In this document: piece after piece, positions 25,226 through 52,678 of the stretch
Position numbering within the stretch: the first letter of the stretch is position 1
Layout of the letters: every line of letters starts with the position of its first letter
Assembly (NCBI RefSeq): GCF_055900595.2
Contig: NZ_CM148325.1
Reading direction: 5' to 3' (one strand)
DNA: 64,000 nucleotides
Notes under the pieces: generated by a model
Told to the model about the DNA's origin: nothing
The model's input: the letters and a program-made list of their open reading frames with translations, nothing else
Database searches by the model: none
Position numbers and translations under genes: made by a program

Positions 25226-25287
25226 TCACTTATCTGGTTTCCCTTTCCAAACGGAGAGGGAAACTGAACAACAGGCGAGGAGTATTT

Positions 25288-25503: not shown

Positions 25504-25712
25504 TATTATTTAAATATATGGTGTAATCATTTGTATTCATAATATAAATGATTGCATCCTATTTTATTTGTTGAAACGCAAATGTAAGTGAGCGAAATCA
25601 CTGTGTTATAAATTTAAGATTATATTTAGTTTTCCTGGCGTGCCTTTCTGAATAATCTGGAATAGAATATTAGAGCTAATTTTAAGCATTATTAATGTCA
25701 CAGGGGATGTGC

Positions 25713-27887: not shown

Positions 27888-27942
27888 GGTCGGCGCCATG
27901 GCTGATCGGGCCACCGCTGAATATTAATCAAGGAGAGTGTTT

Positions 27943-28935
27943 ATGAAACCTGATATGAAACGTGGCCTGACAAAAGTCGCGCTCGCGTTGATGCTGGCTG
28001 GATACTGTGCCGTACCAGCCGCTATGGCGGAAGATGCCGCCTGGGTCGCCAGTGGAGCGACCGCTGAATTCGAAGGGACTATACCCTGGCTCTATCGCGA
28101 AGGGGGGAATGCCACGATTAACTCGGAAGATGCGGATCACATTAAAGTGACGTCTGATGGTAAAGGGACCCGCCCTGCAGGTAGCGAGACGGATAAACGC
28201 CTTTACTCAGGGGATACCATCACGCTGGGATGGGATATCGGCGATACCGAAGGGGATGTTGATGATGGTCCCGCAGGCATTGATGCGAAAACGACGGCCA
28301 CTATCAAATGGTACAGCTACAGCAATAATGCGGGTGGCGATAAAACGGAGCTGACCGCAGCGGCAGGCAAGACGAGTTATAAACTCACTGATGACGATCG
28401 TGGGCGTTATATCGGTGTTGAAATCCAGCCCATCACCCAGACCGGTAATCCCTTCGAGGGAACGTCGCTGACTCTGCTGGATATTTCAACGGCCAGCGGT
28501 GGCGGCAGCGATACGGACAATGTCGATCCCGGCCCGGTTGTGAACCAGAATCTGAAAGTTGCCATCTTCGAGAAAGGCACCACTACCAACCTTATCGGTG
28601 GTAACACGGCCATTGCGCTTAATAAAACGTATGTGGCCAAACTGTACTCGGATGAAAACCAGAACGATAAATACGACGCAGGTACGGATATGGACGTTAC
28701 CGCTAACTATGACTTTGCATGGGTCTTTAACGGTAACAGTAAACAACTTGCTGCGGCGGGCGGTATTGCTAATGCCAGCTTCGATAACAATGACATTGTT
28801 ATCCCGCAAACTAACGAAGAAGCAAGAACCAGCCTTAACGGTAGTGATCGTAATGGTAAGAGTGGTCTTGCGATCCCGGCAAACGGCGACGGCGTTCAGG
28901 GCTATACGCTGTCTATCATTTACAAACACCACTAA
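27943..28935 (+). CDS. secreted SinI-like protein sharing a C-terminal module with SinH
   Basis: ORF 27937..28935; ATG 27943 preceded by AGGAG; signal peptide; C-terminus DGVQGYTLSIIYKHH parallels the SinH C-terminus DGVQGYGLQVNYSKK. Confidence 0.7.
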   Translation: MKPDMKRGLTKVALALMLAGYCAVPAAMAEDAAWVASGATAEFEGTIPWLYREGGNATINSEDADHIKVTSDGKGTRPAGSETDKRLYSGDTITLGWDIGDTEGDVDDGPAGIDAKTTATIKWYSYSNNAGGDKTELTAAAGKTSYKLTDDDRGRYIGVEIQPITQTGNPFEGTSLTLLDISTASGGGSDTDNVDPGPVVNQNLKVAIFEKGTTTNLIGGNTAIALNKTYVAKLYSDENQNDKYDAGTDMDVTANYDFAWVFNGNSKQLAAAGGIANASFDNNDIVIPQTNEEARTSLNGSDRNGKSGLAIPANGDGVQGYTLSIIYKHH

Positions 28936-29043
28936 TGCGCACAACAGCATTCCCTTACGGGAATGCTGTTTTCGCCTGTTTTGCTTAGCGACGCGTTAAG
29001 CAAAACAGGTTGATGTTTTGTTTATCATGCTGGAGTTTTCTAC

Positions 29044-32000
29044 ATGTCGGTATGTCTGAAACCAGGGAAAATCATTATGCTTCTGGGCATGTTGGCAGCT
29101 TTTATGCTGTCTGACTTTGCACGGGCAGGGGCGGAATGGCAGACATATCCTGATTCTACAGGCGAGTTTAACGGAACCGTTCCTTTTGCCGACAGCGCCA
29201 GCGTACCCGTCTATCAGGGCAGTGTTCAGCTTAATCCTGCTGAATCTCATGATGTCGGGTTTTCTGCTAAACCGAATGAATTTAGCGTTGACGATGACGC
29301 TGCTAACCTGATTGTCGCTAATCCTCAGGACAATGAAGGCGACCAGTTTTCCACACCACCTGCGCTGCGCTGGGAAAATCAAACACCCCCTACCGTCAGC
29401 CTGGTGTGGGCCGATGCCGCCACGCCCGATGTGCCCCTTAACCCACAACCTATTGCTAACCGTAGCTTTTGCGCTCAGGGGCTGGCCGGACGCTCGCTGG
29501 TGGCCTGGCCGCAGATTGATGCGCAGCAAACCCTCCCACTGCTCTACCTGTTGACCTCGACCGGCTATCCCTATGCGGGGACGGTGGCGCTGGTGGACCA
29601 GAAAGTGACCCTGAACATCGCGCCCGCGCAGGGCGATTTAATCTCGGTGAGCGCCAGCGGTTATAACGAAACGATCGCGGCGGCAAAAACCACCGTTGGC
29701 GACACCATCACGCTCACCGTCACCACTAAAGATTGTCAGGGCAACGTCGCGGGTAATATTCCGTTTATTATCAAACGTAAAGATGCTGAAAATCGCCAGG
29801 GGGCAGTGAATAATAGTGCGCCAGTGGTACTGGATAGCACCGAGTTAACGACGACGGCTACCGAATACCATGGCACCTCTGATGCCAACGGCACGGCCAC
29901 CATCACGGTGAGCCAACCGAACGGCCCTGGCGTCAAAACGCCACTGGTGGTCAGCATTTCCGGCATTGCGCAAACCAGCGAAACCGCGGTGATTTTTACG
30001 GTGCTCACCAGCCCGGACGCGGCGCAGGCTACGATGTGGGGCCATATGGCGGAAACGGTAGAAGCGCACGGTTACACCTTCAGTCGACCAAAGCTGGCGG
30101 CAGAAGTCAGCAATGAAAGCGCCACGGTCGTCGATCACAACGAAACCTGGTCCACCTTCACCTGGAGCGGCGCAGATAACCACTGCACCGTGCTGCCCGG
30201 CATGCGCCACTTCGGCGCGCTGGCGACCGTTATCCCCACATCGGTGCAGACAGTCCTTGGCTGGCCGATGCAGGGGGATTATTACTGGTCATCGCTGGCG
30301 GGCACCACCGGGCAGCACCATGCGGCGGATGTCTCTAACCGTGGTGAAACGCAAAAGCCGGATAGCACCCCGTTTCTTGTAAGCTGCGTGGATAAACCCG
30401 CGCCTGATGTCGAGCCGAAAATCGTCCTTACGCCCGAAAACTATGATGATACGGCACAGGCGATGAAATCGCAGGTGGGCGAAGACGCCACGATGCGTCT
30501 GACGATCACCGACAATAAAAATAACGATCAACCACTGGCGTATTACTACTTCTCGCTGCATCTGGATGACGGCGTTAACCGCAAAAATCAAACCGATTCC
30601 GCCTGGGAAGCCCATCCGGTGCAGATTACTGGTGGTTCGAATTTGCAACAGGTTGATGCTCACACCTATGAAGGCATGACCGATGTCAACGGTCAGGCTT
30701 CGCTAACCCTGAGTCAGCCCGACGGCGCAGGCGTGAAAACCCATATCACGGCGAAAATGCGCAGCAATTTTACGGCTACAGATGCCAAAGACGTGATTTT
30801 TACTGTGATCACCAGCCCGGACAGCGACAAGGCGCGGATGTGGGGCCATATGCGCGGCATTGTTGTATCTGGCAGTCTGTTCAAACGCCCAGTGCTGGCG
30901 GATGAAACTGAGCATGAACTGGGATCGGTGCGGGAAAATAACGAAGACTGGGCGCTGTTCGATCAAGACACCAGTATGCAGGCTGAATGCGGCGTCGGCC
31001 ATACGCCAAGTCAGAGTGGGCTGGAAAGCCTTTTTTCAGCCCATCCCGGTAACGCGATTGGCACTGAGTATGGCTGGCCCACCGCACAACAGAACTACCT
31101 AAGCGCGGTGGAGCAAGCCACGCATTCATCGGTGAATTTGGCGAACGGAAACGTCGACAGCTACCCCGGCTTTAAGCGAAATTACCTCTCCTGTTCGGGC
31201 AATGAGATGGTCGCGAAGGTTGAAGTGAGCACCGATCACGATGTCACCCCTGGCACCAAAGCGCAGGCCAAAGTGGGAGACACCGTCGTGATGACCGTGC
31301 GTACGGTTAACGCGCTCAATAATACCCCCGTTCCCTTTACTGCCTTCACCATCACTAAAGGCATGGGGTATAACCGAGCGGGGCTGGTGAGCGGGTTTGA
31401 TGACCCGAGCAGCGGCGCAATCTCGATGAATGGCACGCAATACGGCACATCTCAGCCGTCGATGGTCTACACAGGTACGACAGATGCACAAGGCGTGGCA
31501 ACGGTCGAAATAGAGCAACCCCAGGGGGTGGGGTTAAGAACCGTGCTGAGCATTACGCCGGTCAATTCCCATCTACCAAATGCCATTAATTACAATGTTA
31601 TTTTTACCACCCCAACCAGCCCGGATGTTAGTGGGGCGCAGATGTGGGGCCATATGGATGAAACGATTACCGTTGATTCATTAACCTTTACCCGGCCTAA
31701 GCTGGCAGCAGAAATCACCAGTCCGGATGGCACATTAACGGAAAAAAACGAAGTCTGGGCGCGCGTTAGCCAGGCCAGTACGGCCATTACCAGTAAAGGC
31801 GGTTGCGGAACCAATATGCTGCCGCGCCGCTCCCAGCTCAGTGCGCTCTATGACGCTAATAACGGTAATGCGGTGCAAGCCACACACGGCTGGCCGACGC
31901 AGCGTCAGCCCTACTGGAGCAGTTCCCCCGCGGATTTAACGCCGCACAATTACACCATTGCCCTGGATAACGGCGCACAGGCCATCGGCGGCGATACGCC

Positions 32001-35000
32001 GGTTTACGTCAGTTGCCTGACGACGGCGAACAAACCTGCCAGCAGCATTACGCTGGATGTGGTTGATAACGCACAGTGGGCTGCCGGAAATAACGCGGCG
32101 AAGCTGAAAAAAGGCGAAACGCTACAGGTTAAGGTAACGGTAAAAGATGCGCAGGGTAATCCGCTCACGGATATGCCATTTAAACTGAGTCGCGGAGACG
32201 GTTATACCCGCACGGGCGAAAAACATATTGCCGGTAGTGGCGATGCGCTGGTGGCACCGGTGGTGATTAACAGTGGGCTGGCGGATGAAACGACGTTGAA
32301 CGACACCGCGGGATTTTATACTGCCATGACCGGCAGCGACGGCAGCAAAATCCTCAATATTACCCGCCCGGATACTCACGGTACCAAAACGGCGCTGACG
32401 GCGACGTTGTATTCCGATCCAACAAAAAAAGACAGCCTGGATACAATCTTTACTGTGGTCACCAGCCCGGATAGTAGCAAAGCGAAAATGTGGGGCCATA
32501 TGCCGGAAACCTTAACGGCGGCAGATGGTACCGTTTTTAAACGCCCATTGCTGATAAAGGAACTGTCGAGTCAGACCGGGCGAACAGCAATATTCGAAGA
32601 CAATGAAAACTGGGCGCTGTTTACTCAAACCCAGGCGAACTCAACCAGTAACGGCTGCGGCACTAGCTATGTTCCCACTCAGGCAGGGTTGTTGTCGTTG
32701 TTTGATAATCACGCTGGCAATACCATCAAAACCGTCCAGGGCTGGCCGGTAGTAACGCGTTATTTATCCAGCACGCCCGACAACACTGGCATGGAACAGC
32801 GTAACTACAAAGCGGTGGATCTCGGCAATGGCACCAGTGCCATGGTGTCAACGTCGACACTGGATCTACTGACCTGCCAAACCACGCCAGTCACCACGGT
32901 GAGCCAGATTCTGCTGGAAGCGGCAGATCCTGCGGCTCTGATTTATGTTGACGATACACTGAGTGTGGTTAAAGCCAAAAAAGGCGAAGAGTCGGTAGTG
33001 CGCGTCACCACGAAAGATGCGCAAGGTAACCCGGTTGGCAATGCGGCGTTTATTCTGAAACGTGCCACCAGCATAAACCGGAGGTATACATCAGCGACAG
33101 CGAGTGTAGGTGCGCTGACTGTAACCGATGCCTGGGGAAATACGCGGAGTAATTTTCAGGCAACAACTGAAATGATCTATGGCGTGACGGGGGCTGACGG
33201 GTCGACAACCTTTACGCTGAAACAGGATAACAGTACCGGGTTAAGAACCGATCTCACGGCATCACTGGATGGCGTCAGCAGCGTTCAGGCGACCCTCCCG
33301 ATGGTCTTTACCGTGGTAACCAGTCCAGATTCTCCTAAAGCGAATTTTTGGGGACACATGCCTGAAACGGTAACGGCCGCTGATGGCATGACGTATAAGC
33401 GACCATTACTGTTTAAAGAACTTACCAATAACTATGCACGCTATAGCACTTTTGAGAATGGTGAAGATTGGGCAAGATTCAGTGTGGTTCAGTCAAATAA
33501 CACCGATATGGATGGATGCGGTGCAGAGTATATGCCGACACTGGATGGCCTGCAGTCCTTGTACAGTGCCAATAGTGGTAATGCGATGAGTACAGTGCAG
33601 GGATGGCCGGTAGCTAATAGTTATCTCACCAATACACCGAGTGATACGCAACCCAGTAACCGTTATTACAATGTGGTGCAACTGAATTCCGGCGCGGTTT
33701 CTCAAATCGTGACCACCGTGCTGGCATTACAAACTTGTCGCACAACGCCTGCGGTTATTGCCAGCCAGGTGTCTCTGGAGCCTGCGGACGCCACGCAATT
33801 CGTTAAGGTTGACGATACTCTGAGCGCCATTAAGGTGAAAAAAGGCGATGAGGTTGTTATTCGCGTCACGACCAAAGATGCGCAAGGAAACCCGGTGGGT
33901 AATACGCCGTTTACACTGAAGCGTAGCAGTTCTTTCAATCGCCAGAATGCATTAGTGACGATGCAGACGGTTTCGGTGACACCCGCAGCGGCCAGTACAG
34001 TTGATACCAATGCATCGGCCACCGTGTATGGCGTGACCGGGCCAGACGGAACCACCACGATGACACTCCGACAGGATGCGTCTACTGGACTCAAAACCGA
34101 CTTTTATGCTCTGTTGAACGATACCGGCGTGTCGTCGAACACCTTGCCAGTGATCTTCACCGTCGTCACCAGCCCGGATACACCGCTGGCGGCCAACTGG
34201 GGGCATATGGCGGAAACCTTTACCAGCAGCAAGGGCGTCACCTTCAAACGGCCTTTCCTCAAAGCTGAACTTTCTGGTGGTACGGCGGTAACGACCAATA
34301 ATGAAGTCTGGTCGCGCCTGACAGCAACGGAGAAAACGGATGCCAGCAAGGCGGGTTGTGATGAGAGTTATCAACCGCTGATGACTGACATGCAGGGGTT
34401 GTATGCGGATTACCCTAACAACCAGTTGGGCACGGTGCTCGGCTTGCCGACTTCCGCCGGGTATATGTGGGCCTACGACATGATGACGGTTTCTGGCAGC
34501 AGCTGGAGCAACCAGGCATATTCGCTCGTTAATGGTCAGACAGTTCAGGCATCGTCCAGTTATACGGCGGTAGTGATGTGCCTGGTGGAACCGCATACCG
34601 TTCCGGCGATGATAGAGATCACTTCAACAGCACAGGATGCGGCAAAAACGGTCAGCAATGGTGGTCGACCGAGCGCCGTAGCGAAGAAAGGTGAGACGAT
34701 TCCGCTGACGGTGACCGTACGTGATAGCACCGGGAATCCGGTACCCTACGCCGACTTTACCCTCACGCGTGGAACGACGCTGGATCGCTCGAAAGCAACC
34801 GTTAACTCGAGTGCGGACGATCTTACCGTGAAGTCATTGATACCCGCGAACAGCGACGCTGGGCTGACGGCAAATGGGGCAAAAGTGCTCAGAACAACGG
34901 GCAGTGATGGCACTGCCACCTTTGAAGTGAGCCAGAATGCCACGACAGGTCTGGCGACACCGATAACCGTCACGCTGGCGCGCGATACAACCAAAACCGC

Positions 35001-37131
35001 CACGCTGGATGTTATCTACACGGTGATAACCAGCCCGGACTCACCGAGCGCGAAATTCTGGGGACACATGCCGGACACCTTTACCAGTTCGGCAGGCGTC
35101 ACCTTCAGACGACCGCTCCTGAAAGCCGAAGCGACTTCAGGGTCATCGATTAGCACTAACGGTAATGGTGAAGTGTGGTCGTATATGAGCAACGTTCAAA
35201 ATTTAACATCGACAGATTGTCCGCTGGAGAATCAACCGCGCAGTAATGAATTGTTGGATTTGTATAATGATCATCCCAACGGCGCGATAATGACTGACCT
35301 GGGGCTGCCGATATATGCAGGCAAGTGGTGGGCTTATGATATGGTCATGCCGGATTTATATACGTGGCAGTATCAGACTGTCAGCCTGAGCGCAGGAGAT
35401 ATCGCGAAGAGCTCGGCAAACAACGCGCTGATGCTTTGCCTGGCGAAGCCGCATCCGGCAGGCGTCAGCGTAATGTTGACGTCATCCGCAATGGATAACG
35501 CCAGAACCCTCAGTAATGGCGGGCGACCCAGCGCGTCAGTGAAAAAAGGTAACCCACTGCCAATTGTGGTGACGGTCAAAGATCGTGATGGCAACCCGCT
35601 GGCGGGAGAGGCCGTGACGCTCAGGCGTGGTTCAGCGATGAGTCGTTCAGGAGCAGGAGTGGGCACGCCGGCAAATGCAATGACGTTGACAGAATTGACA
35701 CCTGTGTCGGCGGAGTTTTCTCTGGCCGCACACGATACGCAATGGCAAGGTTTCACCGGTAGTGATGGTACGGCCACTTTCAATGTTGAACAGCCTGAGA
35801 CCATCGGCCTGGCTATCTCGTTCACCGCTATACTGGCGCGAGATGTCGCAACTACCAGCGTCATTGATGCGATCTTTACCGTCGTCACCAGCCCGGATTC
35901 CGCAATGGCGACCTACTGGGGCCATATGCCGGATACGGTAACGGCGGAAAACGGCGTGGTCTTTGAACGGCCTAAATTGTTGAAAGAGCTGCCGTCGAGC
36001 GCCGGAGTCAGTCAGGTGACGGATAACAATGAAGTGTGGCCGTTGTTTAAGGCAACGCAAAGGGAAGATAGCAGCCTCAGTCCTTGTGAAGCGGCACGTC
36101 GGCCATTGAGCGATGATTTATTATCGCTCTACGCGCGCTATCCGGGGAACACGCTGACGACTCAAATCGGCTGGTCTACGAAGTATGCATGGTGGGCACT
36201 GGATAACAAGCAGGGGAATGCCCTGGTTGTCAGTCTGAATAATGGTTTTGAGTCGTCGACGGCGAGTACGGGGTATCAGGGATGTCTGGTCAATCCCCGC
36301 GCGACCGTCTCCAGCGTCACGCTGACATCGACGGCGATAGATGCCACTACGCAGGCGGCGAAGGTAAAAAAAGGTGAAGCCGCGCCCGTCGTTGTTACCG
36401 TAAAAGACAGCGCCGGGAAGCCGGTACCTAATGTCGCTTTCACCTTAAAACGTGGTGATGCCGTGCCGCGTAACAGCGGGGCGACGTTGTATGGTGATGT
36501 TGCGGCGATGGATGATATGACGGTACAACCTGCCAGCGGGACGGTGGTAACGCTGGCTGACAGTGGGAATACGATCGACGGTGTGACAGGGGCGGACGGT
36601 ACGGCAAGTTTTGCCGTTCGTCAGGATAATACGCCAGGATATAAAACGCCGTTGACGGTGACGCTGACGGATAACGCCACAATAACGGCGACGCTGGATA
36701 CGATTTTCACCGTGCCGACCAGCCCGAATGTCGCCACGGCGTATTTCTGGGGGCATATGGCGGATACCGCCACCGTAAGTGGCAAGACGTTACATCGCCC
36801 GCTATTGAAATCAGAGTTGCCGTCAGGGGCTACAGCGGCAGTAGCGCCAACGGTGAATAATGAAATCTGGGCGCTGGCACATGTGATCGATGCTCAAAAA
36901 TGGGATATTGCAAAGCAGTGCGGTGACTTTAGTAGAGCACCGAGCTATACCGATTTACAGTCATTGCATAGCGGTTTTAGCGCGCTGGGATGGCCATCAT
37001 CGATAAGCTTCCCCTATTTCTCTACCGATCGGGCCGGTTCGTTCTATTGTGGTATGGATGAAGGGGCGGGGACACAAAACTGCGGTATTCAGGCATCCAG
37101 TACCGCAGGGTTTGCGACTTGTTTCCAGTAG
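29044..37131 (+). CDS. ratA: giant repetitive secreted/surface protein (RatA-like)
   Basis: 2695-aa ORF with N-terminal signal peptide; nine tandem ~270-aa units each carrying FTV(V/L)TSPD..(M/F)WGHM motifs. Confidence 0.8.
29650..37100 (+). repeat. nine in-frame tandem coding repeats (~0.81-0.86 kb period) within the ratA-like gene
   Basis: WGHM signature recurs near nt 30033, 30838, 31642, 32490, 33347, 34197, 35058, 35917 and 36757. Confidence 0.8.
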
Positions 37132-37178
37132 TCTTATCGGGTCTGTAAGCGGGGGAAAGTCTGGTACGCAATACGTCT

Positions 37179-38576
<1,398 letters not shown>

Positions 38577-38658
38577 TTATTCAGTCGATAGTAACCCGCC
38601 CTCCGGGGATAGCAAGCATTTTTTGCAAAAAGGGGTAGATGCAATCGGTTACGCTCTG

Positions 38659-38664
38659 TATAAT
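38659..38664 (+). promoter_or_regulatory. candidate -10 hexamer (TATAAT) of the guaBA promoter
   Basis: Perfect TATAAT 44 bp upstream of the guaB ATG in the xseA-guaB divergent region; -35 element not clearly resolved. Confidence 0.4.
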
Positions 38665-38707
38665 GCCGCGGCAATATTTATTAACCACTCTGGTCGAGAT
38701 ATTGCCC

Positions 38708-40174
38708 ATGCTACGTATCGCTAAAGAAGCTCTGACGTTTGACGACGTTCTCCTCGTTCCTGCACATTCTACCGTTCTGCCGAATACCGCTGACCTCAGC
38801 ACCCAGCTGACAAAAACTATTCGTCTGAATATCCCTATGCTCTCCGCAGCAATGGATACCGTAACGGAAGCGCGCCTGGCTATCGCCCTGGCTCAGGAAG
38901 GCGGTATCGGCTTTATCCACAAAAACATGTCCATTGAACGCCAGGCTGAAGAAGTTCGCCGCGTGAAAAAACACGAATCTGGCGTGGTAACCGATCCGCA
39001 GACTGTTCTGCCAACCACGACGCTGCGCGAAGTGAAAGAGCTGACCGAGCGTAACGGTTTTGCAGGCTATCCGGTTGTGACCGAAGAAAACGAACTGGTC
39101 GGCATTATCACCGGTCGTGACGTGCGTTTTGTTACCGATCTGAACCAGCCGGTTAGCGTTTACATGACGCCGAAAGAGCGTCTGGTAACCGTGCGTGAAG
39201 GCGAAGCCCGTGAAGTGGTGCTGGCAAAAATGCACGAAAAACGCGTTGAAAAAGCGCTGGTGGTTGATGATGAATTCCACCTGATCGGCATGATCACTGT
39301 GAAGGACTTCCAGAAAGCGGAACGTAAACCGAACGCCTGTAAAGACGAACAAGGCCGTCTGCGTGTAGGTGCAGCGGTTGGCGCAGGTGCGGGTAACGAA
39401 GAGCGTGTTGATGCGCTGGTTGCCGCAGGCGTTGACGTTCTGCTGATCGACTCCTCTCACGGTCACTCTGAAGGCGTTCTGCAGCGTATCCGTGAAACTC
39501 GCGCTAAATATCCTGACCTGCAAATCATCGGCGGCAACGTGGCAACAGCTGCAGGTGCCCGCGCGCTGGCAGAAGCCGGTTGCAGTGCCGTTAAAGTGGG
39601 TATCGGCCCAGGTTCTATTTGTACTACCCGCATTGTTACTGGCGTCGGTGTACCGCAGATCACTGCCGTTGCTGACGCAGTAGAAGCCCTGGAAGGCACC
39701 GGGATTCCGGTTATCGCTGACGGTGGTATTCGTTTCTCTGGCGATATCGCGAAAGCTATCGCTGCTGGTGCAAGCGCGGTGATGGTAGGCTCCATGCTGG
39801 CAGGTACGGAAGAATCCCCGGGTGAAATCGAACTCTACCAGGGCCGTTCTTACAAGTCTTACCGTGGGATGGGCTCTCTGGGCGCGATGTCCAAAGGTTC
39901 TTCTGACCGTTACTTCCAGAGCGACAACGCTGCCGACAAACTGGTGCCGGAAGGTATCGAAGGTCGCGTAGCCTATAAAGGTCGCCTGAAAGAGATCATT
40001 CACCAGCAGATGGGCGGCCTGCGCTCCTGTATGGGCCTGACCGGCTGTGGTACTATCGACGAACTGCGTACTAAAGCGGAGTTTGTACGTATCAGCGGTG
40101 CGGGCATTCAGGAAAGCCACGTTCACGACGTGACCATTACTAAAGAGTCCCCGAACTACCGTCTGGGCTCCTGA
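38708..40174 (+). CDS. guaB: IMP dehydrogenase
   Basis: ORF 38639..40174; start [18 protein letters not shown] at 38708; catalytic [11 protein letters not shown] loop. Confidence 0.95.
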
Positions 40175-40242
40175 TTCTCTTCGCCCGACTTCATGTCGGG
40201 CGATTTATATTATCTGTTTCACTTGCCTCGGAATAAGCGTCA

Positions 40243-41820
40243 ATGACGGAAAACATTCATAAGCATCGCATCCTCATTCTGGACTTCGGTTCTCAGTACA
40301 CCCAACTGGTTGCGCGCCGCGTGCGTGAACTGGGTGTTTACTGCGAACTGTGGGCGTGGGATGTGACAGAAGCACAAATTCGTGACTTCAATCCAAGCGG
40401 CATTATTCTTTCCGGCGGCCCGGAAAGCACCACCGAAGAAAACAGCCCGCGTGCGCCGCAGTATGTCTTTGAAGCAGGCGTACCGGTATTCGGCGTTTGC
40501 TATGGTATGCAGACCATGGCAATGCAGTTGGGTGGTCATGTTGAAGCCTCTAACGAACGTGAATTTGGCTATGCGCAGGTTGAAGTCGTAAACGACAGCG
40601 CACTGGTTCGCGGTATCGAAGATGCGCTGACAGCAGACGGTAAACCTCTGCTCGATGTCTGGATGAGCCATGGCGATAAAGTTACCGCTATCCCGTCCGA
40701 CTTCATCACCGTAGCCAGCACCGAAAGCTGCCCGTTCGCCATCATGGCAAATGAAGAAAAACGCTTCTATGGCGTACAGTTCCACCCGGAAGTGACTCAT
40801 ACCCGCCAGGGGATGCGCATGCTGGAGCGTTTTGTGCGTGATATCTGCCAGTGTGAAGCCCTGTGGACGCCAGCGAAAATTATCGACGATGCAGTAGCCC
40901 GTATCCGCGAGCAGGTAGGCGACGATAAAGTGATCCTCGGCCTCTCTGGTGGCGTGGATTCCTCCGTGACTGCAATGCTGCTGCACCGCGCAATCGGCAA
41001 AAACCTGACTTGCGTATTCGTTGACAACGGCCTGCTGCGTCTCAACGAAGCAGAGCAGGTTCTGGATATGTTTGGCGATCACTTTGGTCTGAACATTGTT
41101 CACGTTCCGGCAGAAGATCGCTTCTTGTCAGCGCTGGCTGGTGAAAACGATCCGGAAGCAAAACGTAAAATCATCGGTCGCGTTTTCGTTGAAGTATTCG
41201 ATGAAGAAGCGCTGAAACTGGAAGATGTGAAGTGGCTGGCGCAGGGTACTATCTACCCTGATGTTATCGAATCTGCCGCGTCTGCAACCGGTAAAGCTCA
41301 CGTCATCAAATCTCACCATAACGTGGGCGGCCTGCCGAAAGAGATGAAGATGGGCCTGGTTGAACCGCTGAAAGAGCTGTTCAAAGACGAAGTGCGTAAA
41401 ATTGGTCTGGAGCTGGGCCTGCCGTACGACATGCTGTACCGTCACCCGTTCCCGGGACCAGGCCTTGGCGTTCGTGTGCTGGGCGAAGTGAAGAAAGAGT
41501 ACTGCGACCTGCTGCGCCGTGCTGATGCCATCTTCATTGAAGAACTGCGTAAAGCGGACCTGTACGACAAAGTTAGCCAGGCGTTTACCGTGTTCCTGCC
41601 GGTACGTTCTGTTGGCGTAATGGGCGATGGTCGTAAATACGACTGGGTTGTGTCTCTGCGTGCCGTCGAAACCATCGACTTTATGACCGCACACTGGGCG
41701 CATCTGCCGTACGATTTCCTTGGTCGCGTTTCCAACCGCATTATCAATGAAGTGAACGGTATTTCCCGCGTGGTGTATGACATCAGCGGCAAGCCACCGG
41801 CGACTATTGAGTGGGAATGA
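40243..41820 (+). CDS. guaA: GMP synthase (glutamine-hydrolysing)
   Basis: 525-aa ORF; GATase domain (GVCYGMQ) plus ATP-pyrophosphatase SGGVDSSV motif. Confidence 0.95.
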
Positions 41821-41865
41821 TTCGTTAACGCTTTTCTGCGATTAACACCCATCGAAAATAATACT

Positions 41866-41900
41866 AACCGCCTTGATTTACAGGCGGTTTTTTTATTTTC
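41866..41900 (+). terminator. rho-independent terminator after guaA
   Basis: AACCGCC-TTGATTTACA-GGCGGTT hairpin followed by TTTTTTATTTT. Confidence 0.8.
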
Positions 41901-41985
41901 AGTCATTAATAACCATCAGTTACTATCTGTTGTTTTTAGCGGTAAATTTGACGGTATAAGAAATTTTTAGTCAGTGTTACACTCC

Positions 41986-42024
41986 ATTTTACCGTCAGGT
42001 TTTAGCCAGCGGTGACGGTAAAAT
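41986..42024. promoter_or_regulatory. perfect 12-bp inverted repeat just upstream of the integrase start (candidate operator or att-associated site)
   Basis: ATTTTACCGTCA (41986..41997) and TGACGGTAAAAT (42013..42024) separated by 15 bp; a related GACGGTA half-site occurs near 41950. Confidence 0.45.
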
Positions 42025-42030
42025 TTCACA

Positions 42031-43245
42031 ATGGAGAGTGACCCGATGCTGACCGATACCAAACTGAAAAACCTCAAAGCGCGGGAAAAACTTTATAAAG
42101 TTGCAGACCGTGATGGGCTGTATGTAACCGTATCTCCCAAGGGATTGGTGACGTTTCGCTATGACTATCGAATCAATGGTCGTCGTGAAACGTTAACTAT
42201 TGGTCGCTATGGTGACGGTATTTCTCTGGCGCAGGCGCGCGAAAAATTAGTGGAAGCCAAAAAACGCGTAAATGCAGGAATATCGCCCGCTGGAGAGAAG
42301 CGTGACGGTAAAACAAAGCGAAAAGAAGAAAAGACACTCCACGATTTTACCGTCAGCTACATGAAACACACCCGGCTGGCGGACAGCACAAGGGCGATGA
42401 AGCAAAGCATTATCGACAGAGACATCACGCCAGTATGGGGGCGCAAGCTGCTGTCAGAGATAACCCCCTCTCTCCTACGTGAGTATTGCGACAAGATAAA
42501 AGCGCGTGGTGCGCCAGCGACGGCGATTCAGGTTCGCAATATCGTTAGTGCGGTATTTAAGTTCGCCGCGCTTCACGGCGACTATTACCCCAATCCTGCC
42601 GAAGAGGTTTTACCGGCTTCAATTGCGACATTCGAAGCGCGCGACAGGGCGCTCAAGCCAGAGGAGATAGGCTGGTTTTTCAATCAGCTTGAACAAACGG
42701 GTACATTACCCACCATCAAGCTGGCCATTAAATTGGTTTTATTAACGATGGTACGTAAAAGTGAACTGCTGAACGCTCCGTGGGGTGAGGTTAATTTTAA
42801 TGCCTGCCTTTGGACGATTGACGCCAGCCGGATGAAGGGATCACGGGATCATAATGTTTATCTGTCCCGGCAGGCACAGGACATTCTGATTGCCCTGAAA
42901 ATGTGCGCAGGAAGCAGTGATTGGGTTTTGCCTTCATGCAATCAGTCGTCGCATAAGACCATGTCGGCGGCGACCTTAAACCGGGTCATTAATCTTACGG
43001 TTAAGCAGGCGCAGGAACGGGGGATCAGGCTGGCGTCGTTTTCCGTTCACGATATGCGCCGAACGGCATCGACGTTATTGCATGAGGCGGGGTTTAATTC
43101 CGACTGGATAGAAAAATGCCTCGCGCACGAGGAAAGAAGCGTCAGAGCCGTTTATAACAAAGCGGAATACGCAGAGCAGCGCCGTGATATGTTGCAGCAG
43201 TGGGCGGATATGGTTGATGGGTGGATCAAGCAATACCGCCCGTAA
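42031..43245 (+). CDS. int: tyrosine-type site-specific integrase (P4-like family)
   Basis: 404-aa ORF; N-terminal LTDTKLKNLKAREKLYKVADRDGLYVTV arm-binding type sequence and C-terminal catalytic region (HDMRRTASTLL..CLAHEE..VYN); alternative start ATG 42046. Confidence 0.9.
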   Translation: MESDPMLTDTKLKNLKAREKLYKVADRDGLYVTVSPKGLVTFRYDYRINGRRETLTIGRYGDGISLAQAREKLVEAKKRVNAGISPAGEKRDGKTKRKEEKTLHDFTVSYMKHTRLADSTRAMKQSIIDRDITPVWGRKLLSEITPSLLREYCDKIKARGAPATAIQVRNIVSAVFKFAALHGDYYPNPAEEVLPASIATFEARDRALKPEEIGWFFNQLEQTGTLPTIKLAIKLVLLTMVRKSELLNAPWGEVNFNACLWTIDASRMKGSRDHNVYLSRQAQDILIALKMCAGSSDWVLPSCNQSSHKTMSAATLNRVINLTVKQAQERGIRLASFSVHDMRRTASTLLHEAGFNSDWIEKCLAHEERSVRAVYNKAEYAEQRRDMLQQWADMVDGWIKQYRP

Positions 43246-43248: not shown

Positions 43249-43503
43249 CTATGCGGGGATCTTGGTACCAGAGCGCTTTGGGACTTTGGCCAGATTTTTC
43301 TGTACCGCGTTATCAATATGGTGATGGTTATTTTCCTGCCGTGCTTTGAGCCAGCGTTCCACTTCCTCTTTGTCCCACGCGACGGCGCGCTTCGTTAGCG
43401 CAAAACGTTTGGGAAACAGGCCTTTTTGCTCCAACGCATAAATCGTACTTTCAGAGAGTGGCACCATCTGTAAAAGCACGTTTTTTCTAATGGCAATTTT
43501 CAT
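43249..43503 (-). CDS. AlpA/Vis-family phage transcriptional regulator (excisionase-like)
   Basis: 84-aa ORF resembling AlpA (..LSESTIYALEQKGLFPKRFALTKRAVAWDKEEVERWL..); adjacent to and divergent from int. Confidence 0.75.
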   Translation of the reverse strand: MKIAIRKNVLLQMVPLSESTIYALEQKGLFPKRFALTKRAVAWDKEEVERWLKARQENNHHHIDNAVQKNLAKVPKRSGTKIPA

Positions 43504-44314
43504 TGTTTATTCCTTTAATCCAAAGGCACTCAGTTCTGATAACAGATCCTTTTTTACCAGCAGCGGCAGATTGCTTTGTCTCTTTACGCCAGCCGGTTAG
43601 CAAATCGTTATACATTTCGGTGTCGTAGCCGCTGATAACCACGCTTCCTTGTAACCGGGTGACGGTCTCCAGTAAGCGCAGGTGGGCACCATCGTCCATT
43701 TCGTGGCGATAATATTTGTTAGTCAGATTACGGGTGCTATGAACATACGGCGGATCGACAAAATGCAGCGTGTCGGCGGCGTCATGATCCAGAATACACT
43801 GGATGGCATCGCGGTTTTCCACCAGAACCCCTTCAAAACGCTGACCAACGGCGGCCAGATTATCGGGCATACGGCTCCAGATGTGTTGGGCCGTTCCACT
43901 GGCGCGTTTAGTGTCCAGCCGAAAGCCGGTAGTGCCTTTAGTTGCCCCGGCAGAACCGAAGCCCATCGTGGCGCGAATCACTAAACGCCTTGCCTGTTCA
44001 ACAGAATTTTTCCCATAGCGATAGGCCGAAATAAACTCGGTGCGGGAATAGGGTGTCAGGCTGCAGGCTTCAACCAGTCTTTCGCGCAGTTGTGGGGTAC
44101 GAAGAACGGCGAACAGGTTAACGACGTCGCCATCCAGATCGTTGTAAACCTCGGCGTAGCTACGTGGTTTTCTGAGCAGTACGCTGGCTGCACCGCCGAA
44201 GGGTTCCACATAGCATCTGTGGGCCGGAAAGTGGCTAATGATCCACGGAGCTAGTCGCCACTTGCCGCCGTGGTAGCGGATTGCAGGGTGCTTAATCATC
44301 CAGTTTTTCTCCAC
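43487..44314 (-). CDS. Dam-family DNA N6-adenine methyltransferase (paralog 1)
   Basis: 275-aa ORF with N-terminal YHGGK..RCYVEPFGGAAS AdoMet motif and catalytic DPPY motif. Confidence 0.8.
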   Translation of the reverse strand: MEKNWMIKHPAIRYHGGKWRLAPWIISHFPAHRCYVEPFGGAASVLLRKPRSYAEVYNDLDGDVVNLFAVLRTPQLRERLVEACSLTPYSRTEFISAYRYGKNSVEQARRLVIRATMGFGSAGATKGTTGFRLDTKRASGTAQHIWSRMPDNLAAVGQRFEGVLVENRDAIQCILDHDAADTLHFVDPPYVHSTRNLTNKYYRHEMDDGAHLRLLETVTRLQGSVVISGYDTEMYNDLLTGWRKETKQSAAAGKKGSVIRTECLWIKGINNENCH

Positions 44315-47896: not shown

Positions 47897-48201
47897 TTTT
47901 AACTAACTGAAACACTAACGCTTTTCGTTAACGGACTGACGAAATAGTGTGATGCCGTTCAAAAAAATGATTCTTGCCATGCTGGACATCGAACGGTTCT
48001 GCTCCAGCGCTAATGCTTACAGTTCCGCGATTTCAGCGGGGAGCAGACGCATTGCCACCGGTTTGTTCGACATCACCCCGCGGGGTGCTCGTGAGCGTAA
48101 GACGTTCTCATTTGTTTTCATGGTGGTATATTGTGGTTATTAACATTACACAATCTATAATTCCCTCAATTGAGTGAATTGTCAATGGTAATTATATCCA
48201 A

Positions 48202-48540
48202 ATGAAAGAATTTGGCATCCGTTTGAAGGAAGAACGTATCCGACTTGGCCTTGATCAAGACGGCTTTGGACAACTTGGGGGCGTGAAGAAAAACGCACAA
48301 AGTAACTATGAGAATGGACTGCGCAAGCCGGACAGTGACTATCTTGCTGGCATAGCGGCAGCGGGAGTTGATGTTCTGTATGTTCTAACAGGCAACCGCA
48401 CGCCTGTGGCTACGTTGTCCAGTAAAGAGAGTGTGTTGGTGGAGAACTATCGTTCTGCTACGCCAGAACACCAGTCCACCCTTGACACGGTTAGCGCTGC
48501 GCTTGCGCAACCGGGAGTAGGGAAAGCAGCTAAGGGATAA
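48202..48540 (+). CDS. XRE-family helix-turn-helix transcriptional regulator (Cro/CI-like)
   Basis: 112-aa ORF with classic HTH_XRE N-terminus (FGIRLKEERIRLGLDQDGFGQLGGVKKNAQSNYENGLRKPDSDYLAGIA); divergent from ogr. Confidence 0.8.
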   Translation: MKEFGIRLKEERIRLGLDQDGFGQLGGVKKNAQSNYENGLRKPDSDYLAGIAAAGVDVLYVLTGNRTPVATLSSKESVLVENYRSATPEHQSTLDTVSAALAQPGVGKAAKG

Positions 48541-48580
48541 CGAGTAGAATGAATTTGGTTATTGTCTGTATGGAGGCAAA

Positions 48581-49153
48581 ATGAAGTTGAATAATCTGGT
48601 TGCTCTTTACAGGAACATGACAGAGCAAAAATTGGATAGGGTTAAATTCCCATACAGACACAATAATTTACATTTTGATGTATTTTTCTTTATTGATGGA
48701 AAACCGTTTGAGCTTCTTTTCGGAGCATTAGGCGCTAATCTTTGCTTTCGTCTAAAAGTCGAGAAGGGATTCGTCATAAATCCTAATCTGGGAAGTGAGA
48801 CTTATAAAGAATTATGCAAGGCGCTAGGTTTGAAATATGACCCTGCCAATCCATTTAGAACAAGTAAGTTTTTTGAAGATTTTGATGGGAAAATCCCTAC
48901 ATCGGTTACTGTTAAGAATAAGGCAAAATATACTGATATTGCTGTGCATGTCAGGGATGTTGAAGAAGCAGACAGAATATATTTCTGTGGATGGAAAAAC
49001 AACAATGAAGAAAAGAGTCATGTTACTGAAGATAATTTAAAGAAAACGAAAGAGTTTTTAGGGTATCAGGCTTTTCTTGTTTGTAAGGAAAAGAATATTA
49101 GCAGTAGATGGACTGATTTAGAAAATAAAGCAAAAGATTTTTATTTACCATAG
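48581..49153 (+). CDS. hypothetical protein (cargo gene 1, no recognisable domain)
   Basis: 190-aa ORF with strong SD GGAGG; A+T-rich, Lys/Asn-rich; first gene of compact operon. Confidence 0.6.
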   Translation: MKLNNLVALYRNMTEQKLDRVKFPYRHNNLHFDVFFFIDGKPFELLFGALGANLCFRLKVEKGFVINPNLGSETYKELCKALGLKYDPANPFRTSKFFEDFDGKIPTSVTVKNKAKYTDIAVHVRDVEEADRIYFCGWKNNNEEKSHVTEDNLKKTKEFLGYQAFLVCKEKNISSRWTDLENKAKDFYLP

Positions 49154-49167
49154 GATTGTGAGGTTAT

Positions 49168-50316
49168 ATGTCTGATATTTCATTAGGGTGCGTGGTTGTT
49201 CATAGGTTGATAAAAGAGCAACATAAAGATTTCGATCACTCAAAACCATATAGTCGCCGTGATACGGTTCTTGACCGAAATAATGAAATCGTAATTAAAC
49301 TAGTGTCCAGTATAGCCGCATTGTATGGTAAAAAATCTAATAGCTCGCATTATGGTATATTTAATTTAGATGAAACACGCAGGGGGCCTTTTCCAGCGGA
49401 ATTTGATAAATATCGGAATGATACATCCAAGAAGTTAGACGATGAATTGTTTATAGGATTATCAAAAAATGTTATGCATCAGTTATATATTGAGGCAAAG
49501 GATCGACCTGCTGCATCAGGAGGATTACTTCTTTTTGCTGATTATATCAGTAAATCCGTGCGTTACTTTCTTATTGCAATGATTAAGCAAAAGGAAGGTA
49601 TAGTTATTAGTGATAAATTAGAGCCAAAGGAGTTAGAGCATCTTGATCTGGCAAAACTAAACCAGGCGGCACGAATAAACTATGATTTGTATGATAAATA
49701 TATTTCCGCTGATGAGAATGAAAGACAGGATGTTAATTATTTAAGTTTTGTTAGTCCCAGTTCTAACCAGACAACTTCAGGGTATTTCATTACTGCCTTA
49801 GGTTGTGATAAAGGTAATACATCAACTAAAGCTACGAGTAATTTAATTAATGAATCTTTTAACTTCTTCAGAAATCATCAAGAATTAAAGGATAATGCCC
49901 GTAAATTTAAAAATGAAATTATTGAGTATTTATTCGATTGTTCTGAAAATAACATTTCAGCTAAGCTCTCTGTTGTTAGTGAGATGGCGGCGAAGCATAT
50001 GGTTAATTTAGAAGATGACATTAAAGATAAATTGTCAGAAGAATTATATGCTCATTTGAATAGTGAAAGTATTCGTGTGCCTGTGGAATTTAGGGTAAGC
50101 AAATCAGTAGTTAAGAAAAACAGAAATATTAAATATACAAGTGATAATGTTAATTTTGAGTTTAAATCTAGTTTACTAGGCAATACTCTTGATAATGAGA
50201 TATGCTATAATAAGAAAACTGGACATTTAACTTTTACTCGGATTACTCCTGAGAAAAAAAGTGAAATAGCTCAATTGCTTGATGAGTTAATAAAAGAAAG
50301 AAATAGCGAAAAATAA
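49168..50316 (+). CDS. NdpA/YejK-like nucleoid-associated protein homolog (cargo gene 2)
   Basis: 382-aa ORF, SD GTGAGG; collinear similarity to E. coli YejK recalled from memory (VVVHRLIKEQH vs IALHQLIKRDE; GGLLLFADY..VRYFLIAMI vs GGxVLFCHY..VEYLLVAVL). Confidence 0.55.
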   Translation: MSDISLGCVVVHRLIKEQHKDFDHSKPYSRRDTVLDRNNEIVIKLVSSIAALYGKKSNSSHYGIFNLDETRRGPFPAEFDKYRNDTSKKLDDELFIGLSKNVMHQLYIEAKDRPAASGGLLLFADYISKSVRYFLIAMIKQKEGIVISDKLEPKELEHLDLAKLNQAARINYDLYDKYISADENERQDVNYLSFVSPSSNQTTSGYFITALGCDKGNTSTKATSNLINESFNFFRNHQELKDNARKFKNEIIEYLFDCSENNISAKLSVVSEMAAKHMVNLEDDIKDKLSEELYAHLNSESIRVPVEFRVSKSVVKKNRNIKYTSDNVNFEFKSSLLGNTLDNEICYNKKTGHLTFTRITPEKKSEIAQLLDELIKERNSEK

Positions 50317-50318
50317 GG

Positions 50319-50957
50319 TTGCTTAATATGTCATGTTTTGAAACGGTTGTTGAGCTTTTCAGATATGTAGGGCGTCCTAAATTTGATGCTATTAATAATC
50401 GTTTTTCAGCAACTATTTCTTATGATGCTCATATATATGAACTCTTAGTTTCTTTGCAACCTCATACAGCGTGGGGAGAAATTGAAGAGATTGTCATTGA
50501 TGATGTGGATATAGATGTTGATGATAGCCTTCCCGCTAAAGGAACATCAATAACACTGACAATCTCTATATCAACTGGAGCTAGTGAGTCATTTTTTATC
50601 GATATTAAAGATCTAATTCAAAAGTCTCCGATGTTAAATAGAGGTATTTTAAGAAAGTCTTTTTACTTGGTTGAGGAAGATTTTTATTTTAATGAAGGAA
50701 TGGTTGAGGGATTAGCAAAAATACCAGAACTATCTGTTTTAAAGAATCTTTGTGATTTTATTTTATGTCTATCAAAAGTTGCACACTACAGCAATAGTAA
50801 AAGTGATGATGTATGCCATAAGTTAGTTTTCTTGAAAAATACTAATGCTAAGTCATTACCTTTAATTATTGAAACTAATGTTGATTATTCACTTCTTTTA
50901 ACAGGTATTAAGGATTTAAAAATCATCGAATCTTTTTCTGATGAAAAAAAGCTATAA
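50319..50957 (+). CDS. hypothetical protein (cargo gene 3)
   Basis: 212-aa ORF beginning 2 bp after the preceding stop; acidic, no recognisable domain. Confidence 0.55.
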   Translation: MLNMSCFETVVELFRYVGRPKFDAINNRFSATISYDAHIYELLVSLQPHTAWGEIEEIVIDDVDIDVDDSLPAKGTSITLTISISTGASESFFIDIKDLIQKSPMLNRGILRKSFYLVEEDFYFNEGMVEGLAKIPELSVLKNLCDFILCLSKVAHYSNSKSDDVCHKLVFLKNTNAKSLPLIIETNVDYSLLLTGIKDLKIIESFSDEKKL

Positions 50958-51001
50958 CGGATGATAATTATTTTGAGCGAAAAGGGATTTTCATTAATAC
51001 G

Positions 51002-51583
51002 GTGGTCGATTTTCTTGAATCAATCGATGTAAAGAAACAGTTTCATTTTTTATTCTGTGAGTGGGATGAATTTCTAAAACTATACCATAATAACCTCGGT
51101 GTATATCTTAGTGGTTTTTCATTTCATAAAGTAAGAAAGGAAGTGGCAGAGGCAGAAGCTAATTTAGCTGAGCGTTTTTCAAAAATAATGTCAGACATGA
51201 TAGCTAAGCTTTTAGGTATTCCTGTTTCTTTGGTTGCTACTTTTGGCATGATAAAATTAAATACCCTGCCGGAAATGTTAGTGGTTTTTTTAGGTGTATT
51301 GCTCACGTCGATAATTATGTTTTTTATTGTAAGAAGTCAATACACACAGTTTAGGATGATTTGTGATGCTAAAGATATTATATTTTCCCCATTAGTGAAA
51401 AAATCTGTAGGTTATACAGAAGATTTGAAAAAATTAGTATGCAATGCAAAGGATAATTTAGACAAAAATCAGGTCATGTTAAATCGTTACCTTCTTTTCT
51501 TTCAATGCTTATGCTGGATTCCGACAGCCTTAGGTGGTGGAATGATCTTAATGGCTATTATGGTTCATTTAGGATTACTATAA
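51002..51583 (+). CDS. predicted membrane protein (cargo gene 4)
   Basis: 193-aa ORF with apparent GTG start; hydrophobic segments (IPVSLVATFGMIKL.., MLVVFLGVLLTSIIMFFIV, ..CWIPTALGGGMILMAIMVHLGLL); 3' end overlaps convergent gene D by 6 bp; start codon uncertain. Confidence 0.45.
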   Translation: MVDFLESIDVKKQFHFLFCEWDEFLKLYHNNLGVYLSGFSFHKVRKEVAEAEANLAERFSKIMSDMIAKLLGIPVSLVATFGMIKLNTLPEMLVVFLGVLLTSIIMFFIVRSQYTQFRMICDAKDIIFSPLVKKSVGYTEDLKKLVCNAKDNLDKNQVMLNRYLLFFQCLCWIPTALGGGMILMAIMVHLGLL

Positions 51584-52678
51584 ACTTAATTCCATTTCTA
51601 ATGCGGTGACATAACCAGTACCGCCATCCAACGTATGCACGCACCGCGTAATCACCCACGCGGTGCCATCAATTTCCGCCTTAAACCCCTTCACCTGCAG
51701 CGGTAATTCCGGGAACAAATCGGGCCGTCCACGCGCAAGATTCAGGCTGAACGTTGCCGCGCCGCGCTGTAGCTGCTCCCACGCGCTTTTTGCCGCTCTG
51801 TAGGCGTTATTTTTGTTGGCATAGGTGTGGCGCAGCACCTTGATATTTCCCTCTTCGCCAACCATCACGTTATCAGCATTGAATGAGGCGTCTGACGGCG
51901 GAGATTCTGTTGGTTGCGTTTGTGGACGGTTTTTCCGTGTCTTGCGCTTCATGTCAGTGGACTGCTTTTTTGCCTGCCGTGTATCCAGCCAGTAGGCCGT
52001 CACACCGGTATACGCCTCCCTGTCCGCGATGCTGAACCGGTGGCTGTCGCCGTCCTCGCGGGTAATGGTTGCGACCGGCAGCGGTTTGCCGCTGGCACTT
52101 TTACCGGAACCTGTCGGCATTAGCAGCAGAGCATCATTTTTCACGCAGGCGATAGCGCCGTGCAGTTGCGCCAGCCGGGTCAGGAAGGAGGCATCGGATT
52201 CGTTAGTCTGGTCAACGTGCTCAATGGCGATCCCAGCCAGCTCGCCGCTGACGGTTGATTCCAGCTTATGACGCGCCGCCACGGTTTGCACAATCGCGCC
52301 CAGCGTCGCATCATGGTAGCTCTGTTCCCGTTTAACGTTCAGCGAATCGCGGAAATCGGCGCTGCGGGCGCGGAGGCTGAGTACGTCCGGTGCGCCGCTG
52401 TGCTCCAGTTCGTCCACTGTGAAGACATTCTGGTGCATCACGCCGTCACCCTTCCAGCCTAGAGAAACCGTTAGCTTTTCGCCCTTTGCCGGAAACGCCA
52501 GCAGGCCGTCGCTGTCGTCCAGTTCGAGCTGCAGTTCGTCGGCCTCAAAGCCCCGGTTGTCGGTGATACGCAGGCTGATTAAGCGGTTGTCCAGATTCCG
52601 CGTAATGTCCTTACCGTTCAGCACCACGCTGTACTCCGGCTGCGGCTGGGCGTTTAAGAGTGCGTTTAACATCGTCAT
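51578..52678 (-). CDS. P2 gpD-like tail protein (late control D)
   Basis: 366-aa ORF, MTMLNALLNAQPQPEYSVVLNGKDITRNLDNRLISLRITDN.. typical of gpD; position after U. Confidence 0.85.
   Translation of the reverse strand: MTMLNALLNAQPQPEYSVVLNGKDITRNLDNRLISLRITDNRGFEADELQLELDDSDGLLAFPAKGEKLTVSLGWKGDGVMHQNVFTVDELEHSGAPDVLSLRARSADFRDSLNVKREQSYHDATLGAIVQTVAARHKLESTVSGELAGIAIEHVDQTNESDASFLTRLAQLHGAIACVKNDALLLMPTGSGKSASGKPLPVATITREDGDSHRFSIADREAYTGVTAYWLDTRQAKKQSTDMKRKTRKNRPQTQPTESPPSDASFNADNVMVGEEGNIKVLRHTYANKNNAYRAAKSAWEQLQRGAATFSLNLARGRPDLFPELPLQVKGFKAEIDGTAWVITRCVHTLDGGTGYVTALEMELSL

Follow-up and report, generated by a model that had tools for sequence, protein, structure and literature searches.

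A perfect inverted repeat upstream of the integrase gene of a guaA-integrated P2-like prophage lies in an array of putative arm-type sites

Introduction

What is the role of a perfect 12-bp inverted repeat that lies in the short stretch between the end of guaA and the start of an integrase gene, and which site did the integrase use? The question is raised by a stretch of 64,000 nucleotides (contig NZ_CM148325.1 of RefSeq assembly GCF_055900595.2; the whole stretch is referred to as the window). A preliminary description of this DNA placed the attachment site at the 3' end of guaA or in its terminator region, and suggested that the inverted repeat may bind the integrase or a repressor. We find that positions 41823–42030 of the window belong to a P2-like prophage, as the int-proximal (P') arm of its attachment site. 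Both the attachment site and the cluster to which the integrase belongs are already published, and database records of epsilon15 and P4 already mark the repeats. The sole result beyond the literature consulted is quantitative support for selection acting at the DNA level on the arm words within the int reading frame.

Integration at the 3' end of guaA

The open reading frame for GMP synthase (guaA; 40243–41820, + strand) matches a sequence annotated as guaA in 5,425 E. coli genomes. A megablast search with 41400–42500 against 5,426 complete E. coli genomes gave a guaA match in 5,425 of them, and this match ends at 41822–41823 in 5,422. The segment from 41824 onward is covered to at least 80% in only three of the 5,426 genomes. 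Comparison with the empty site of K-12 had been named in the preliminary description as a possible refutation, should the repeat prove to be chromosomal. K-12 has neither the inverted repeat nor anything else that follows 41822/41823 in the window. Beyond GAGTGGGAATGATT K-12 has TGACCCTGCAC, followed by a terminator of its own and by yfgI, where the window has CGTTAACGC instead. The inverted repeat is therefore phage DNA. That it should be native DNA downstream of guaA, or a chance palindrome, has a probability close to nil. The native origin is refuted by the empty-site comparison, with the repeat absent from K-12 and from all but the three genomes mentioned above. As for chance, perfect 12-bp inverted repeats whose loop is 40 nt or less are expected 0.23 times according to first-order Markov simulations of the window, against six loci observed, and five further copies of the repeated word lie within 420 bp.

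The exact block duplicated by the insertion is the 14-mer GAGTGGGAATGATT (41809–41822). It consists of the last three guaA codons, the stop codon and two extra bases, so that the core takes in the final 12 bases of guaA, stop included, and phage DNA begins at 41823. The block can alternatively be read as a 17-mer with one mismatch. The attL core ATTGAGTGGGAATGATT (41806–41822, + strand) was located from the alignment with the K-12 empty site, from the attR of L725 (L089) and GMF054 (L003), and from an identical published 17-mer. The window contains a single core copy because the prophage extends past base 64000. The direct repeat to be expected at the far end was found in L725 and GMF054, where the 14-mer lies at attR and is followed by K-12-type sequence. 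L725 carries a prophage of ∼34 kb and its int region is 98.5% identical to that of the window. Its attR junction reads ...GATAATC-GAGTGGGAATGATT-TGACCCTGCAC..., followed by a K-12-type terminator, and the prophage end adjoins yfgI. As the L725 junction restores K-12-type sequence directly after the 14-mer, this was taken as the duplicated core.

GMF054 was rejected as the attR reference in favor of L725, because its yfgI-side core is without arm sites and its true phage end lies 3.8 kb inward, at a variant of the core. The intervening 3.8-kb segment of GMF054 (13893–17726) contains two DUF262 genes and no integrase, and is absent in L725. It is bounded by the core variant GAGTGGGAGTGA, with phage arm sites just before it, and by the exact core beside yfgI. 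Apparently this is a tandem element, or a remnant, that has no integrase and shares the guaA att site.

Of the two places first proposed for the attachment site, the guaA 3' end itself is thus retained, while the terminator turned out to be phage-borne. A terminator scan located this Rho-independent terminator at 41866–41896 (+ strand), with the stem AACCGCCT/AGGCGGTT and a T run. The native K-12 guaA terminator has another stem (CCCTCTG/CAGAGGG), and the terminator in the window is phage DNA standing in for the displaced native one. A terminator at this position is annotated in the epsilon15 and phiV10 records as well. Each clade of guaA-integrating elements has a Rho-independent terminator 55–90 bp past the core, with a stem that differs between clades (L004–L007, L013, L015, L028); the Uetakevirus stem is almost a copy of that of the native K-12 guaA terminator.

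The preliminary description had seen no tRNA-like sequence between guaA and int, and an ARAGORN scan for tRNA and tmRNA genes was empty over the whole 64-kb window. An Rfam search of 41600–42500 gave nothing above threshold; just two sub-threshold sRNA matches were obtained, both over the terminator. There is accordingly no tRNA or tmRNA gene at the junction, as would be typical of an element that targets such genes. For annotation this means that the guaA 3' end, and not a tRNA, marks the left boundary of the prophage.

The same site is used by several other elements. The phage vB_EcoP_ZX5 integrates at the 3' end of guaA with attP = attB = attgagtgggaatgatt, as established by PCR and sequencing, and the same att is stated for phiV10 and epsilon15 (PMC9782041). 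GIsul2 uses GAGTGGGA at the guaA 3' end (PMC9376610). The “epsilon15 cluster” of IntSXT-subgroup integrases targets the guaA 3' flank throughout (PMC8138268), and the window agrees with this cluster in that integration took place at the core GAGTGGGA(ATGATT), as seen from its attL and from the attR and the empty site elsewhere. GIsul2 and related islands share the guaA 3' end, the core, the adjacent integrase and an alpA gene with the window; unlike the window element, GIsul2 is a genomic island and not a phage, and its reported att site is 19 bp long.

The integrase and its gene

Int (gene at 42046–43245, + strand, in an open reading frame that opens at 42031) has three Pfam domains, all above the curated cut-offs: the arm-binding domain PF13356 (Arm-DNA-bind_3, E = 6e-21), the core-binding domain PF22022 and the catalytic domain PF00589. 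It is 59–62% identical to the integrases of epsilon15, phiV10, SPN1S and Tyrion over 98% of the length (E ∼ 1e-150), and 30% identical to P4 Int over the full length (E = 8e-41). The segments VRKSEL, HDMRRT, LAHEE and AVY align with the catalytic R, H-x-x-R and H and with the Y nucleophile of P4 Int, respectively. Judged by domains and homology, Int is predicted to be a P4-type tyrosine integrase of the epsilon15 cluster in the IntSXT subgroup. Its arm-binding domain is the best conserved part of the protein (75% identity vs. 62% overall).

The start of int had been put ∼210 bp past the guaA stop. This distance holds for the first ATG of the open reading frame (42031, 210 bp), but not for the conserved start at 42046. 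The N-terminus [M/V/L]LTD[T/S]KL, found in 85 of 85 homologous integrases, corresponds to the ATG at 42046, and a Shine–Dalgarno sequence (GGAG) lies ahead of it at 42033–42036. For these two reasons the real start is most likely 42046 rather than 42031. The core sits 224 bp upstream of this ATG on the same strand. As int is transcribed away from the core, attL covers the int upstream region. Downstream of int, an alpA/vis-like gene (43249–43503, − strand; Pfam PF05930) encodes a probable recombination directionality factor which is 54% identical to phiV10 gp36 AlpA.

An extra gene for a D12-class adenine methyltransferase (43487–44314, − strand) lies between alpA and a DUF7673/FtsK-gamma gene. 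The prophages of GMF054 and L725, although 98% identical otherwise, do not have this gene. A second D12 methyltransferase gene is found at 58205–58963.

An array of repeated words between the core and int

The inverted repeat was confirmed: ATTTTACCGTCA (41986–41997) and TGACGGTAAAAT (42013–42024) are exactly complementary and separated by a 15-nt spacer. The third GACGGTA copy mentioned in the preliminary description is also present, at 41950–41956. Four more copies could be identified, namely an AGCGGTA variant at 41938 and copies inside int at 42212, 42302 and 42344–42356. The word has the consensus GTGACGGTA(A/T) and occurs at these seven places in both orientations. GACGGTA occurs 22 times in the window where 4.9 copies are expected, and six of the 22 fall within 405 bp (Poisson P ∼ 9e-9).

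Four of the copies, or three without the AGCGGTA variant, lie upstream of int; all offsets are counted from the core start at 41809. Site A0 (41938–41944, + strand, +129) is the variant half-site AGCGGTA and lies 12 bp upstream of the word in site A (TTGACGGTATAA, 41948–41959, + strand, +139), so that the words of A0 and A form a tandem pair at +129/+141. Site B (ATTTTACCGTCAG, 41986–41998, − strand, +177, with the 7-mer core of the word at +181) and site C (GTGACGGTAAAAT, 42012–42024, + strand, +203) are the left and right arms of the inverted repeat. They make up a converging pair with 24 bp from start to start. The int ATG follows 22 bp after the end of site C, which includes a −10-like hexamer, TAAAAT.

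The layout of the array is conserved among relatives, even though the DNA between the sites, from core to int, cannot be aligned among them. Because most IMG/VR contigs break off where int begins, upstream sequence was available from only ∼25 relatives; a single one of these does not have the word at +138 to +141 from the core. Two words in tandem, 12 bp apart, are present at +128/+140 in L028, in Tyrion, in a Klebsiella plasmid, in the Uetakeviruses (as GGCGGTA) and in Ralstonia (GGCGGTA, as GGCGGTAA). An inverted copy lies at +169 to +181 across the relatives; at +179 to +181 it is seen in the window, L028 and L013; the copy of L015 and L020 has a single mismatch. A direct copy at +204/+205 is shared by the window, L028, L015, L020, L013 and Ralstonia, i.e., by the clades with a longer arm. 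The positions +128/+140, +180 and +204 thus recur in five clades, as expected for arm-type sites. The perfect palindrome is not essential for maintenance of the element, since GMF054 has a point mutation in site B.

The word is also found on the other side of the core. The far arm (attR) of L725 and GMF054 holds two tandem copies of the word, as GACGGTAAAACTGACGGTAAAT, at −83/−71 from the core, and intact phage attP sites have far-arm copies at −82 to −84 and −71/−72. Taken together, a word distinct from the core occurs in direct and inverted orientation in both attP arms, with the P' arm and int read from the window and the P arm from its relatives. The IHF consensus WATCAANNNNTTR had no match within 41801–42060; a match, AATCAAGGGGTTA, lies in the L725 far arm, 31 bp before the core.

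Beyond the window end, ∼10 repeats containing GGTAACC/GGTTACC are found between the portal gene and attR in L725 (34440–34730) and GMF054 (13380–13660). These repeats of the P2-like phage might be iterons or regulator sites.

We consider it probable that the words are arm-type sites for the N-terminal domain of Int, and that they organize the integrative and excisive complexes. This reading builds on the presence of the word on both arms, its fixed position relative to the core, the arm-binding domain of Int and the annotation of epsilon15. Of the two candidates named in the preliminary description, an integrase site or a repressor site, the comparative evidence supports the integrase. In the mechanism that we propose, a P4-type Int of the epsilon15 cluster brought in the phage through a crossover inside GAGTGGGAATGATT. 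The guaA end is restored by the core copy that came with the phage, and the phage terminator at 41866–41896 takes the place of the native one. The inverted repeat is sites B and C of an array that comprises A0/A, B/C, D/E/F within int and two far-arm copies. The Arm-DNA-bind_3 domain would bind the words of this array and the C-terminal domains the core, and such bridging of arm and core by Int would lead to the integrative and excisive complexes.

The array resembles those of known phages. In the RefSeq record of epsilon15, from which its site positions were taken as features, four homologous 10-mers are annotated as “protein_bind: integrase” (predicted), two of them inside int. The Uetakeviruses epsilon15, phiV10, SPN1S and vB_EcoP_ZX5 have the core ATTGAGTGGGAATGATT at the guaA 3' end, as in the window, with a terminator directly past the core, the GTGACGGTA word at +138 and then an inverted copy. 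In common with the window they also have two intragenic copies 90 bp apart, and an int gene that is followed by genes for a methyltransferase and AlpA. The window differs from them in an Int that is only ∼60% identical and in the carrier, which is a P2-like myovirus and not a podovirus. In its P' arm, which exceeds theirs by ∼33 bp, an additional direct copy (site C) gives rise to the perfect palindrome, and site F is a third copy inside int. On the far arm, the window type, as read from relatives, has two full copies vs. one copy and a half-site in the Uetakeviruses.

Satellite phage P4, the archetype of this class of integrases, has the same integrase architecture (the 30% identity was over the full length) and shows the same arrangement, with two adjacent 12-bp far-arm repeats, and with a tandem pair and an inverted copy just before or over the int start. 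It further has an annotated copy 294 nt into int, where the gene encodes the linker that separates the arm-binding from the core-binding domain and that in the window holds sites E and F. Unlike the window, P4 uses the word TTGGGGGCAT, targets a tRNA-Leu gene and has one intragenic copy and not three.

Another possibility is that the repeats are operators for the AlpA/Vis-like directionality factor (43249–43503) or for a phage repressor, and not sites for Int. The P2-like element and phiV10 each have a gene of the AlpA family, with the 54% identity given above, so that by distribution alone AlpA would be a candidate binder as well. In KplE1 (CPS-53), TorI represses intS from sites adjoining the −35 element. 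P4 Vis binds the int-proximal arm and represses Pint. Directionality factors, however, normally bind direct repeats on one arm only, and the word described here has at least nine copies, spread over both arms and both orientations in an arrangement that agrees site by site with the arm repeats of P4. It also tracks the integrase across unrelated immunity regions, i.e., those of the P2-like element, a Uetakevirus, a Klebsiella plasmid and a Ralstonia island, and the arm-binding domain is the part of Int that is conserved best. We therefore regard operators for AlpA or a repressor as improbable, and continue with the words as putative Int sites.

The attP arms of epsilon15-cluster integrases in phages, islands and plasmids can be recognized by GTGACGGTA(A/T) at its fixed spacing. 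The Klebsiella plasmid pKPN-498 (L091) is an IncF plasmid where an epsilon15-type int with intact P' arm sites is found at 1290–1500 next to the truncated core GGGGAATGATT. The truncated core suggests integration at a secondary site.

Possible regulation of int by Int

Sites B and C lie 22–60 bp upstream of the int start, and for this reason Int bound to them may also repress int. This autoregulation is the weaker step of the mechanism, and by analogy with related systems we would give it an even chance. A scan of 41700–42500 for the sigma-70 consensus gave no promoter. The only −10-like candidates are TGTTACACT (41975–41983, with the hexamer at 41978–41983 and an upstream TG) and TAAAAT (42019–42024). 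Manual promoter candidates over the repeat had a poor −35 element or the wrong spacing, and none was assigned.

The closest regulatory parallel is the IntS/TorI system of KplE1. There as in the window, int is transcribed away from the core and attL overlaps the int regulatory region. The P'1 site of KplE1 overlaps the −10 element, and repression of intS by IntS and by TorI has been shown experimentally. KplE1 differs in its tRNA gene target, in its arm motif and in having no reported intragenic sites; its arm-type P' site covers a located −10 element, whereas the window has candidate −10 hexamers only. In P4, Pint is repressed by Int and by Vis.

The inverted repeat could instead act in the int leader RNA, where it would form a 12-bp hairpin and CACUCC (41980–41985) would pair with the Shine–Dalgarno GGAG (42033–42036), thereby limiting Int translation or providing an RNase III site. 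RNA folding of 41975–42050 gave −25.5 kcal/mol with z = −3.6 and a paired Shine–Dalgarno sequence. The L015 clade (62% Int identity) folds alike with GCUCC/GGAGU, and the epsilon15 record has an RNase III site annotated over its converging pair. The Shine–Dalgarno sequence is not paired in L028 and L013, however, and in epsilon15 (z = −0.5) and Tyrion (z = +0.3) the fold fails to reach significance. Tyrion has retained the direct copies, whereas its inverted copy has eroded. The hairpin also leaves the far-arm copies, the 12-bp tandem pairs and the intragenic copies unexplained. Moreover, the scan was negative for a promoter upstream of 41975, and transcription from the most plausible −10 hexamer would begin within site B. 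We thus find it unlikely that the hairpin accounts for the repeat. It may be a lineage-specific overlay, compatible with protein binding, on an array whose words we still take as putative Int sites.

Copies of the word inside the int reading frame

Three copies lie in int itself. Site D (GTGACGGTA, 42212–42220, + strand, +403) covers codons 56–59 and is homologous to the epsilon15 feature 27108–27117. Site E (GTGACGGTAAAA, 42302–42313, + strand, +493) lies exactly 90 bp after site D, covers codons 86–89 and is homologous to the epsilon15 feature 27198–27207. Site F (42344–42356, − strand, +535, with the 7-mer core of the word at +539) covers codons 100–104 and is the same 13-mer as site B, ATTTTACCGTCAG; it falls in the linker between the arm-binding and core-binding domains. 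The linker with sites E and F is the least conserved segment of Int (42% identity).

In a codon alignment of 25 integrases with <95% nucleotide identity to each other, the codons of the motif are nearly fixed. Site D has GAC in 21 of 21 and GGT in 22 of 25 sequences, and site E has CGT in 19 of 22, GAC in 21 of 21 and GGT in 24 of 25. The ACC codon of the motif is found in 24 of 25 sequences. Gene-wide usage is far below these motif columns (GAC 0.58, GGT 0.29, ACC 0.36 and CGT 0.21), and the other invariant Gly columns of int have mixed codons. When the 226 conserved degenerate columns are ranked by codon invariance, the top 12 include four of the six motif codons (hypergeometric P = 6.6e-5). 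In site F, the motif bases are fixed while the encoded amino acids vary (F/H/Y and V/D). As the motif codons are near-fixed and the bases are kept where amino acids change, selection seems to act on the DNA word itself at sites D, E and F. We take this comparison of sequences as evidence for DNA-level selection on the intragenic arm words across the family. The words are absent at the positions of D, E and F in Ralstonia, L022 and L031.

A role of these three sites in recombination is uncertain because they lie 400–540 bp from the core, which is beyond the classical distance of arm sites. A tentative idea, which we think less probable than its opposite, is that D, E and F are functional Int sites under selection as DNA. 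With the upstream cluster they might form a second “operator” 200–330 bp downstream, so that Int could loop or roadblock int, or they might take part in an intasome of ∼620 bp reaching from the far-arm sites to site F. If the intragenic sites are functional, P4 would share the feature via its one annotated intragenic repeat. Truncated int transcripts have been reported for P4 lysogens, and these might then be explained. Experimental confirmation would add an extra regulatory or architectural layer to P4-type integrases.

Two further features of int are outside the GACGGTA word. A small terminator-like hairpin is found at 42369–42385 (− strand), and codons 111 and 113 (CTG and GAC) are unusually invariant across the homologs.

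The carrier prophage and its surroundings

The prophage is P2-like (Peduoviridae-type). The window contains genes for GpD, GpU, the FII tube protein, sheath, baseplate J and tail fibre, and the 98%-identical relatives have Ogr/Delta, P2-family capsid, GpO and terminase. The carrier is rare and was found in only three of the 5,426 complete E. coli genomes. The presence of a podovirus-type integration module (core, terminator, arm sites and int) on a P2-like myovirus shows module exchange.

A block of low GC content (0.30–0.43) is found in the prophage at 48000–51600. It holds genes for an HTH protein, a DUF6037 protein and an NA37 nucleoid-associated protein together with two open reading frames without a Pfam match. 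PADLOC assigned no system to these genes (48000–51600). In L725, the same slot has different genes, with NA37 and a “GTP pyrophosphokinase”, and because the relatives differ in this slot, the block has the look of a hotspot for variable cargo or defence genes.

The host chromosome next to the prophage (25000–41800, 16.8 kb) has a best identity of 97.5% to any complete E. coli genome and is 90–95% identical to most. As no complete E. coli genome exceeds 97.5%, the window probably comes from a divergent Escherichia lineage.
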